From Escherichia coli (GTDB taxonomy: Bacteria; Pseudomonadota; Gammaproteobacteria; Enterobacterales; Enterobacteriaceae), in NCBI RefSeq assembly GCF_003334385.1, contig NZ_QOWN01000117.1: a DNA stretch of 1,295 bases. One strand, 5' to 3'. The notes beneath the pieces were generated by a model. That model saw nothing but the letters and a program-made list of their open reading frames with translations. It was not told where the DNA came from and ran no database searches. Below, in pieces: positions 1 to 1,295 of the stretch. A program made the position numbers and the translations under genes. Position 1 is the stretch's first letter. The number at the start of each line of letters is the position of its first letter.

Positions 1-271
1 GTTCAAAGAGGCATACATCAATGCCTTTAACCAGATGGAGAAACAGCTTTCAAATCCCTCTGTACTGAGCGACGTTGCACATAACGCCAGCGTTCTCTAT
101 TCCTACATTTCATCAATTCATCAGGTCTGGCTGCAGCAGCTTTATCCCATGTTGGCAAAAGCCGAATCCCCGCTGGCTGTAAGTCTGTATGACCGCATCA
201 ACGACGCGGCGCTACTGGCCAGTCTCATAAATTTGTCGCTGAACCCTTCAGAGGTAAGGGGGCGCAAATGA
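1..271 (+). CDS. Hypothetical protein, 5'-truncated at the window edge (about 90 C-terminal residues visible)
   Basis: Frame 2 is open from position 2 to the TGA at 269-271. The first in-window ATG (35-37) has no Shine-Dalgarno motif upstream, so the true start is probably upstream of the window. The stop overlaps the next gene's start (ATGA). No family recognised by eye. Confidence 0.6.
   Translation, partial: FKEAYINAFNQMEKQLSNPSVLSDVAHNASVLYSYISSIHQVWLQQLYPMLAKAESPLAVSLYDRINDAALLASLINLSLNPSEVRGRK
256..262 (+). promoter_or_regulatory. Shine-Dalgarno-like ribosome-binding site for the CDS starting at 268
   Basis: AAGGGGG, 5-nt spacer, then ATG; embedded in the 3' end of the upstream gene. 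Confidence 0.6.
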
Positions 272-492
272 TCCGGAATATTTTCAAACGGTTTACCAAT
301 CAGACTTTCCGTTGTCCTCGTCCTGGTCAGTGGTACACCACGCCTGCAGGGCATGTTCTACGTGTCAGCCTGGTTGACCGTGAATGTCAGAAGGTGATTT
401 GTGAACCGCTGGGCCGTAATTACCGCATCAGTATGCCGCTTATAGCCTTTTGCTCCGGAAAAATGTTTAAGCGTCTGGGAGGTGTGGCGTGA
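268..492 (+). CDS. Hypothetical small basic protein (74 aa) with four cysteines; possible nucleic-acid-binding or metal-binding protein
   Basis: ATG at 268-270 lies 5 nt downstream of AAGGGGG (256-262). The ORF runs to TGA at 490-492. By my count it has 13 Arg/Lys against 3 Asp/Glu, with Cys at residues 16, 40, 45 and 62 and His at 29. It overlaps both neighbours by 4 nt. Confidence 0.7.
   Translation: MIRNIFKRFTNQTFRCPRPGQWYTTPAGHVLRVSLVDRECQKVICEPLGRNYRISMPLIAFCSGKMFKRLGGVA
477..482 (+). promoter_or_regulatory. Shine-Dalgarno-like ribosome-binding site for the CDS starting at 489 (GTG)
   Basis: GGGAGG, 6-nt spacer, then GTG; embedded in the 3' end of the upstream gene. Confidence 0.6.
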
Positions 493-788
493 ACTGTTTT
501 CAGTTTGTGTGCGGATGTGCTTTCGATAACCCGATTCAGCGCCTGATTATGTTGCGTGTTTTGATGTCGGGTTCTTCAGACGGTGAAGGCGAGAGAGTTA
601 TTGATCATCAGGTGCTTGCTGATTTCTGCTGTTGTTCTAAGCAAGCGATATTCAGGGAAACCCTGGCACTGGAAAGAGCTGGTTATCTTCATATCCGAAA
701 AATTGCAACGCTTACTATTGATGCAAAAGCCAGACTACAACCTGCGCGTGGCTACACAATTCTCATGCCGCGGAAGGAGGTTGTATGA
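489..788 (+). CDS. Hypothetical 99-aa protein with a helix-turn-helix-like segment and two cysteine clusters; putative small DNA-binding regulator
   Basis: GTG at 489-491 lies 6 nt downstream of GGGAGG (477-482). The ORF ends at TGA 786-788. The internal ATGs at 549 and 564 have no Shine-Dalgarno motif, so the GTG is preferred. Residues about 40-69 (HQVLADFCCCSKQAIFRETLALERAGYLHI) fit a helix-turn-helix pattern. Cys clusters are C-G-C (nt 510-518) and C-C-C (nt 627-635). Confidence 0.65.
   Translation: MNCFQFVCGCAFDNPIQRLIMLRVLMSGSSDGEGERVIDHQVLADFCCCSKQAIFRETLALERAGYLHIRKIATLTIDAKARLQPARGYTILMPRKEVV
774..780 (+). promoter_or_regulatory. Shine-Dalgarno-like ribosome-binding site for the CDS starting at 785
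   Basis: AAGGAGG, 4-nt spacer, then ATG; embedded in the 3' end of the upstream gene. Confidence 0.65.
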
Positions 789-1295
789 GCCGTTACGCCC
801 CCACACCGGAAGTTATGGCTATTGGTCAAATTAATATTTCCGGCAATGTTACACCTGCGAACTGGTGGAAATATATTCGACTACCCAGTGGGCGTCCGGA
901 TGCGACGGCTATCGCTCTGCTTTCAGAGATCGTTTACTGGTACCGCCCGACAGAGGTCAGGGATGAGCACACCGGAGCGTTGCTGGGATATCGCAAGCGT
1001 TTTCAGGGCGACAAACTGCAAAGAAGCTACCAGGCGTTTGCTGAGCAGTTTGGTTTCGGGAAAAGGGAAACCGCAGATGCGCTGAAGCGTCTGCGCGATG
1101 CAGGGTTTATTACTCTGGATTTACGCACGGTGGAAATGCTCGATGGGGTGAAATGCAGCAATATTTTGTTTGTCGGGATCAACCCACAGGCAATTGCGGC
1201 CATCACCACACCTTCTTCTGTTTCGCCAGAAAGTAACAGCAATAATGCAATCAGCGATACAGCTATTACGTTAAAACGGAACACCCCCCGACGTC
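785..1295 (+). CDS. Putative winged-helix DNA-binding protein, possibly a phage/plasmid replication-initiator-like N-terminal domain; 3'-truncated at the window edge
   Basis: ATG at 785-787 lies 4 nt downstream of AAGGAGG (774-780). Frame 2 is open to the end of the window, about 170 codons with no stop. The segment FGKRETADALKRLRDAGFITLDLRTVEMLDGVKCSNILFVG looks like a recognition helix followed by a beta wing. It is followed by a Ser/Asn/Thr-rich low-complexity stretch (TTPSSVSPESNSNNAISDTAIT) typical of an interdomain linker. The functional assignment is by pattern resemblance only. Confidence 0.7.
   Translation, partial: MSRYAPTPEVMAIGQINISGNVTPANWWKYIRLPSGRPDATAIALLSEIVYWYRPTEVRDEHTGALLGYRKRFQGDKLQRSYQAFAEQFGFGKRETADALKRLRDAGFITLDLRTVEMLDGVKCSNILFVGINPQAIAAITTPSSVSPESNSNNAISDTAITLKRNTPRR

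Follow-up and report, generated by a model that had tools for sequence, protein, structure and literature searches.

The DNA analysed here, a stretch of 1,295 nt from Escherichia coli (hereafter the window), carries four real genes of a prophage early-right (PR) operon. These genes would most likely be translated by termination-reinitiation at junctions that combine a Shine-Dalgarno (SD) motif with an NTGA overlap and that also mark sites of module exchange; by analogy with gene pairs studied elsewhere, we give this reading a probability of about three in four. The three start/stop overlaps with their strong SD motifs exceed chance expectation, yet they are not unusual for this type of operon. 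The least ordinary element of the window is a portable gene encoding a 99-aa predicted winged-helix protein with an invariant CCC motif.

Genomic context and coding status

The whole window was 99.8% identical (100% covered) to the chromosome of E. coli SW070917, within a lambdoid SfV/mEp460-like prophage, and at least 80% of it was present in 41 of the 5,426 complete E. coli genomes. On the minus strand, the annotation of prophage locus L001 lists integrase and excisionase genes, together with a leftward early region that extends as far as a LexA-family (cI-like) repressor. The order on the plus strand is YdaS/cro-like, YmfL (cII-like, phrog_101), rha, the 74-aa gene, the 99-aa gene and the 327-aa rep, after which come PerC/YfdN-like, N6-adenine methyltransferase, LexA-like, RusA, KilA-N, DUF968, Q antiterminator and holin genes. 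The elements that characterize a lambdoid early-right operon were found in place (divergent repressor/cro upstream; cII-like, replication, nin-type and Q downstream), and a gene order matching this type of operon was also present in four deposited phages. These comparisons place the window in the interior of the early-right (PR-type) operon that an SfV/mEp460-like lambdoid prophage carries; an earlier, sequence-only reading of the same DNA had likened the arrangement to phage early operons, and the L001 annotation bears this out.

No convincing promoter or terminator was found in the window by consensus scan, in agreement with the earlier proposal that regulation of the unit lies outside it. 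A single promoter-like match (9/12) was returned, at 848-877, and near 1087-1104, inside rep, two weak terminator-like matches overlapped each other; the promoter-like count of the scanned region was below the shuffle mean. With no intergenic space and with promoter and terminator matches at or below shuffle expectation, a single transcript would probably run through the four genes. By eye, a candidate PR (TTGAAG, 16 nt, TAATAT; 8/12, below the scan cut-off) was noticed in the 90-bp repressor/cro gap of L001, where it adjoins the palindrome TTGTACC...GGTACAA; a promoter in this gap is plausible. Rfam gave a chance snoRNA match alone (E 0.51), PADLOC gave no matches, and nothing relevant was found in the literature on this phage group.

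RefSeq CDS boundaries in the best-matching genome delimited the same four genes as the plus-strand open reading frames of the window (35..271, 268..492 and 489..788, plus a frame open from 785 to the window end). Mismatches against homologues at codon positions 1/2/3 were 7/5/25 for rha (compared with Salmonella phage F1055), 7/9/31 for the 74-aa gene, 4/3/26 for the 99-aa gene and 2/3/32 for rep, whereas a minus-strand ORF used as control (142-354) displayed 14/10/16, with no third-position bias. With mismatches concentrated at codon position 3, all four frames are real genes under purifying selection. The sequence-only reading had proposed four consecutive genes, and both the identical RefSeq boundaries and the third-position bias in all four frames agreed with it. 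The features of the window are collected in Table 1.

Table 1. Genes, junctions and sequence motifs located in the window (window coordinates).
Feature	Position	Strand	Basis or remark
rha 3' end (last 90 codons), encoding a 381-aa Rha-family phage regulator/antirepressor-like protein	1..271	+	RefSeq, TIGR02681, phrog_821
GAGGTAAGGGGG, SD-like motif within the rha coding sequence, for the 74-aa gene	251-262	+	duplex -11.2 kcal/mol
ATGA start/stop overlap, rha to 74-aa gene (junction 1)	268-271	+	rha stop TGA 269-271; 74-aa gene start ATG 268-270
74-aa gene, phrog_1153 (unknown function)	268..492	+	phrog_1153, E 2e-44
GGGAGGTG, SD-like motif within the 74-aa gene, for the 99-aa gene	477-484	+	duplex -11.5 kcal/mol
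GTGA start/stop overlap, 74-aa gene to 99-aa gene (junction 2)	489-492	+	sequence, ORF list, RefSeq annotation
99-aa gene for a predicted winged-helix (wHTH) protein, accessory cassette upstream of rep	489..788	+	phrog_4617, AF2 model, family alignment
AAGGAGG, SD within the 99-aa gene, for rep	774-780	+	duplex -12.4 kcal/mol, strongest of the window
ATGA start/stop overlap, 99-aa gene to rep (junction 3)	785-788	+	sequence, RefSeq annotation
rep 5' half, encoding a 327-aa replication initiator (N-terminal DNA-binding domain and start of the linker)	785..1295	+	phrog_270
Origin-like repeats beginning inside rep: TACAGCTATTAC, then ACGTTAAAACGGAACA	1258..1295		second copy, from 1291, runs off the window

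Structure and conservation of the gene junctions

Geometry was the same at the three junctions: the stop TGA and the next start (ATG or GTG) share two bases, the SD lies within the upstream gene's last 4-7 codons, and a spacer of 4-6 nt separates SD from start. SD strength was scored as the pairing of the 20 nt upstream of each plus-strand ATG, GTG or TTG (n = 67) with the 3' tail of 16S rRNA. By duplex energy, the starts at junctions 1, 2 and 3 ranked third, second and first among the 67 candidates; over all window positions the mean was -2.5 kcal/mol, and 3.6% of positions reached -9 or lower. Strong SDs accompanied three of the 14 [AGT]TGA tetramers of the window, and these were exactly the three junctions. 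The sequence-only reading had located the three overlaps and placed a strong SD 4-6 nt upstream of each start, inside the preceding gene: every coordinate was correct by sequence, ORF list and RefSeq, and the top three SD energies sit at the junction starts. From cro to Q in the window's own prophage, seven of 12 junctions were -4 overlaps and one was a -1 overlap; SD energies elsewhere in this operon ranged from -5 to -8 kcal/mol, the three of the window being its strongest. SD masking by RNA hairpins was rejected, a control in which the upstream sequence alone was shuffled revealing no excess pairing at 13 junctions, with a marginal exception at the MTase to LexA-like junction.

Junctions were tabulated in eight loci. 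In PhiR40_1, mEp460 and Salmonella phage F1055, the rha/74-aa and 74-aa/rep pairs overlapped by 4 nt and had SD energies between -10.8 and -11.2 kcal/mol, and in Stx2a_1447 the rha/74-aa overlap was annotated with the same coordinates. The -4 overlap between the 99-aa gene and rep was kept in loci of Enterobacter (L003), Serratia (L005), Salmonella (L007) and Pantoea (L009), where the proteins were only about 60% identical. The zone around junction 1 (244-273) was identical to Salmonella phage F1055 at 29 of 30 positions, against 83% overall, which hints at a possible extra constraint there; around junction 3, 26 of 30 positions were identical against 91% overall, with no excess over the surroundings. 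Loss of the overlaps and SDs in close homologues had been named beforehand as an observation that would speak against coupling; the overlaps were kept in close and distant homologues (Salmonella, Enterobacter, Serratia and Pantoea), and the proposal was not refuted on this count. Judged from this tabulation, the overlaps are conserved and are the norm for this operon type.

Products of the four genes

The rha gene corresponded to positions 8126-9271 of L001, annotated as a Rha family regulator, and its product matched the Rha profiles TIGR02681 (114 bits) and phrog_821 (E 3e-187). The 74-aa gene is conserved just upstream of replication modules, and homologues of its product were confined to Escherichia, Salmonella, Citrobacter and Enterobacter. 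In Pfam, the 74-aa protein had no match, and DUF4222 (PF13973) was not reported even at E <= 10; searched with the DUF4222 profile, the 74-aa family gave at best one of 19 members, with E 0.097. The cores of the 74-aa family and of DUF4222 proteins were aligned by hhalign (probability 63%, E 7e-5), and in more distant prophages a DUF4222 protein occupies the position of the 74-aa gene. It is possible that the 74-aa protein is a distant DUF4222 relative, as opposed to a demonstrated member of the family. Nothing functional was found in the DUF4222 literature, and NCBIfam held no match for the 74-aa, 99-aa or Rep proteins.

The 99-aa protein aligned with positions 3-93 of the 223 in phrog_4617 ('replication initiation protein'; E 2e-29) and, by BLASTP, with the N-terminus of the SfV-type O protein (33% identity over 48 residues, E 7e-6). 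Its AF2 model (pLDDT 79, pTM 0.73) displayed the succession helix, strand, helix, helix and beta-hairpin wing, and the best Foldseek matches of the model were N-domains of RepA_N-type initiators (4pql, 4pt7 and 5kbj), which were weak (E ~3e-3, TM ~0.5). Profile match, BLASTP alignment and model point to a winged-helix protein akin to the DNA-binding domain found at the N-terminus of phage replication initiators. Pfam gave nothing significant for it (HTH_Crp_2, E 0.012), HTH_36 being found in one Pantoea homologue. The family consists of standalone proteins of 97-106 aa in Escherichia, Enterobacter, Serratia, Citrobacter, Klebsiella, Salmonella, Kluyvera, Pantoea and Yersinia, and its alignment contains 21 invariant positions, including F-C-C-C-S-x-Q, and a conserved start position. 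Compared with a 91%-identical copy, the gene presented 25 synonymous and eight nonsynonymous codon differences. A dead O-type remnant left by recombination was ruled out by the conserved length in at least eight genera, the 21 invariant positions and the synonymous excess, and a paralogous relationship to the N-domain of the accompanying Rep was discarded, there being no similarity between the two (E 32).

In Enterobacter the 99-aa gene can follow cro, from which 25 nt separate it, and has an SD of its own; in E. coli LH50-c it was absent, the 74-aa gene being joined by GTGA straight to a 91%-identical rep at a junction made of the left side of junction 2 and the right side of junction 3. Since LH50-c has the same rep without it, the 99-aa gene is a clean present/absent cassette that this Rep does not require. 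Binding of the 99-aa protein to the conserved TACAGAGATTAC repeats was not supported either: LH50-c has the repeats and the same Rep without the gene, and Enterobacter has the gene without the repeats. We regard as rather doubtful, though worth stating, that the 99-aa protein is a portable accessory factor of lambdoid replication modules instead of a mere look-alike of transcriptional regulators; the grounds for this reading are the invariant F-C-C-C-S-x-Q motif, the constant place of the gene, with a 4-nt overlap, before initiators of three unrelated N-domain types, and its clean absence in other cases. Such a factor might regulate the origin or the expression of rep, might confer specificity on either, or might compete with the initiators of rival phages. 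If true, this would be a modest addition to the biology of lambdoid phage replication.

Rep matched phrog_270 ('replication initiation protein') with E 8.5e-76, its C-terminal part resembled DnaD-like loader families, and RefSeq names for it included 'replication protein' and 'LvrA C-terminal domain-related'. Its N-terminal 168 aa were 64% identical to Salmonella rep334, and a PDB sequence search with Rep returned no matches. The repeats beginning inside rep belong to families D1 and D5, located in L001 at 10258-10356, where two 16-mers with 23-bp spacing and two to three 12-mers were found together with an AT-rich stretch; in L016 the same repeats were far more frequent than in shuffles, and in LH50-c their conservation was well above that of shuffles. 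From their position alone, the repeats inside rep would be a candidate origin.

Junctions as boundaries of exchanged modules

Similarity to known phages differed along the window. Positions 1-484 were 92-95% identical to PhiR40_1, mEp460, cdtI and several Stx phages (SfV-like); identity to Salmonella phages was 83-84%. Positions 485-1295 had no real counterpart as DNA in the 50,697 records of deposited phages, nor did the 99-aa protein; this module was present in 222 of the 5,426 complete E. coli genomes. Alignment of junction 2 in five phages revealed three different replication modules after the same GGAGGTGnnGC[AG]TGA, with GGAGGTG kept before all three. The crossover behind the arrangement of the window was placed at ~455-464, where the 74-aa gene has a conserved 3' end, ~25-35 nt upstream of junction 2, with the match to SfV-like phages on its upstream flank and the match to AR_0013-like prophages on its downstream flank. 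A crossover within the shared 74-aa gene points to ordinary homologous recombination. The junctions are, on these comparisons, ordinary lambdoid mosaic boundaries.

It could be argued that the SD and NTGA junctions are kept mainly as short homologous linkers for the swapping of lambdoid modules. The SfV-like similarity ends within a few bases of junction 2, where the three replication modules follow one and the same motif; two NTGA junctions precisely bound the 99-aa cassette, whether it is there or missing, and some E. coli matches start exactly at junction 3. However, the actual crossover lies upstream of the junction, in the conserved end of the 74-aa gene, a motif of 8-15 nt is very short for homologous recombination, and selection acting on random joints would also leave joints at gene boundaries, so that we consider such a function of the junctions unlikely.

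Translation across the junctions

Among co-directional gene pairs of E. coli, no arrangement is more frequent than the -4 overlap (PMC6728339; PMC10666635), and distances of -8 to +6 account for 24% of these pairs (PMC10666635). Of five E. coli pairs tested, four showed tight coupling by termination-reinitiation, bioBF being initiated de novo, and removal of the SD lowered reinitiation in four of the five tested pairs (PMC6728339); coupling was nearly gone once the gap reached ~20 nt, and short overlaps were enriched among subunits of complexes (PMC10666635). By analogy, a ribosome terminating at the TGA of each junction of the window would be held by the SD just behind it and would restart on the overlapping ATG or GTG, so that translation would pass from gene to gene along a single PR transcript. 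The strong SDs probably allow some initiation de novo as well, and a mixture of reinitiation and independent initiation is expected at these junctions.

Some of the evidence tells against termination-reinitiation. SDs of this strength (-11 to -12 kcal/mol) would suffice for initiation on their own, junction 3 was conserved no more than its surroundings and, since SD pairing did not go beyond that of shuffles, no predicted RNA structure visibly prevents initiation de novo. The overlaps might then be a by-product of genome compaction and of start/stop drift, each gene being translated from its own SD and uncoupled from its neighbours, a view with which several observations agree: the SDs of the window are the strongest of the operon, their masking by RNA structure is not above shuffles, the 99-aa gene of Enterobacter can follow cro across a gap and with its own SD, and one of the five tested E. 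coli overlap pairs was initiated de novo (PMC6728339). In contrast, the -4 geometry was kept across genera despite divergence to ~60% protein identity, and most of the tested -4 pairs were coupled, with coupling lost at a gap of ~20 nt (PMC6728339; PMC10666635); we judge uncoupled translation of the four genes somewhat unlikely. Coupling could also operate by unmasking of structure, with the downstream SD held in a hairpin with upstream coding sequence and freed by translating ribosomes. Minimum free energy folds did pair all three SDs with upstream sequence, and at junction 3 UACAACCU (736-743) paired with AGGUUGUA (777-784) in an 8-bp stem, the 100-nt fold having z = -2.0. Nevertheless, when the upstream sequence was shuffled and the region from SD to start was kept fixed, the SD pairing probabilities observed (0.79, 0.75 and 0.66) hardly stood apart from those of the shuffles (0.69, 0.63 and 0.59, respectively), 15-32% of which reached the observed values, and the homologous junctions of Enterobacter, Serratia, Salmonella and Pantoea presented no pairing excess. 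G-rich SDs pair with almost any sequence. Unmasking is, in our opinion, very unlikely as the basis of coupling here.

A further explanation is that the 99-aa protein and the initiator are the two pieces of one initiator, an obligatory complex of defined stoichiometry whose ratio would be fixed by the overlap. The 99-aa gene always lies directly upstream of an initiator gene with a -4 overlap, in five genera, its product resembles initiator N-terminal domains, and the subunits of complexes are enriched for short overlaps (PMC10666635). Against this, LH50-c has a 91%-identical Rep and the same origin repeats without the 99-aa gene, the Rep N-domains found downstream of the 99-aa gene are of three unrelated types, and the 99-aa protein has no sequence similarity to the Rep of the window. 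The sequence-only reading had offered subunits of a complex as an alternative, which found no support, given that the 99-aa gene can be missing before the same rep; an obligatory complex is quite unlikely.

Comparison with known systems

Beyond correct annotation, the arrangement matters little, as it is that of a standard, tightly packed lambdoid early operon. Two 'hypothetical' genes are now placed more precisely, one as a DUF4222-like small gene, possibly a distant relative of that family, and the other as a probable initiator-like winged-helix accessory gene, and the window clearly illustrates the exchange of modules at overlap junctions.

Rep resembles lambda O-type initiators in its layout, in which a low-complexity linker stands between an N-terminal DNA-binding domain and a C-terminal domain, and the candidate origin resembles the lambda O-type origin within a gene, with direct repeats and then an AT-rich stretch in the linker-coding middle of rep. 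It differs from lambda O in that Rep matches lambda-O-like families weakly (phrog_391, E 9e-8), and from the lambda-type origin in that the 16-mer occurs just twice and the 12-mer two to three times. With the SfV/mEp460/PhiR40_1/Stx2a_1447 group the prophage shares the same overlaps and the order cro, ymfL (cII-like), rha, 74-aa gene, replication gene, YfdN/PerC, methylase, LexA-like, RusA and so on to Q, whereas the SfV-type O (272 aa) of that group is replaced here by the 99-aa winged-helix gene and the 327-aa initiator. As compared with the -4 overlap pairs of Huber et al. (PMC6728339; PMC10666635), the junctions of the window are likewise co-directional, overlap by 4 nt and have the SD inside the 3' end of the upstream gene, both the -4 overlap and the internal SD being found at all three; nothing structural sets them apart, their SDs stand at the strong end, and coupling would be extended to them by analogy. 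The arrangement is already known in kind, as -4 overlap and SD pairs inside a standard lambdoid early-right operon.

Gene content and recombination

The true recombination point lies within the 74-aa gene and not at the overlap. In the window this gene is a hybrid, being SfV-like until about position 455-464 and AR_0013-like thereafter, and its product ends in KMFKRLGGVA in place of KNMKHLGGAA. The 99-aa gene that follows is a present/absent cassette with clean ends, with one NTGA junction (a 4-nt start/stop overlap) on each side. In the E. coli LH50-c prophage (L016 2282-3495, compared with window 268-1295) the 99-aa gene is missing and GTGA links the 74-aa gene straight to a rep gene 91% identical to that of the window.

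In L001, the best-matching E. coli prophage locus, the final ~22 residues of the 327-aa Rep and the PerC/YfdN gene after it are SfV-like (L001 10700-11259 vs. L014-L016), whereas in other E. coli prophages (L014-L016) genes for a DnaC-like ATPase and DnaB helicase come after the same Rep. The L001 prophage therefore has neither of these two genes. Its replication module is a hybrid.

The 99-aa protein and annotation of homologues

The motif Phe-Cys-Cys-Cys-Ser-x-Gln (window 624-644) was invariant in all 25 aligned homologues of the 99-aa protein and falls within its predicted helix-turn-helix; such a run of three invariant cysteines is atypical for a winged-helix protein. A single database protein, P0007 (107 aa), presented the 99-aa N-terminus fused by a frameshift to an overlapping 83-aa ORF; the frameshift probably arose during sequencing or assembly, and the fusion is unlikely to be a real product. 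In Salmonella phage 118970_sal3 (L010 2728-2973) a minus-strand hypothetical ORF is annotated at the place of the 74-aa gene. The window match of this phage was 483 nt vs. 484, and the record points either to an indel of 1 nt or a frameshift, or to a gene miscall.

Candidate control elements

Coordinates of the sequence elements and the overlapping ORF
Feature	Position	Strand or frame	Location
Origin-like repeats	window 1258-1295, on into L001 10258-10380		linker-coding middle of rep
83-aa ORF	window 583..834	+1 relative to 99-aa gene	
Terminator-like hairpin AACCGCGCTTCAGCGGTT, then TTTTT	L001 8540-8557	+	within rha coding sequence, 5' of window

The terminator-like match in rha may be due to chance; alternatively, the hairpin may serve as an attenuation point internal to the operon.

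The origin-like region of rep contains two copies of ACGTYAWAACGGAACA at 23-bp spacing; downstream of this pair there is a tandem array of TACAGAGATTAC, with two exact copies and a degenerate one, after which an AT-rich stretch comes in L001. The 12-mer array is shared by the rep genes of Salmonella (L007 4863-4898) and Pantoea (L009 4794-4829) prophages, and different iteron arrays occurred with other Rep N-domain types (L009 4660-4776 and, in Enterobacter, L003 4633-4754).
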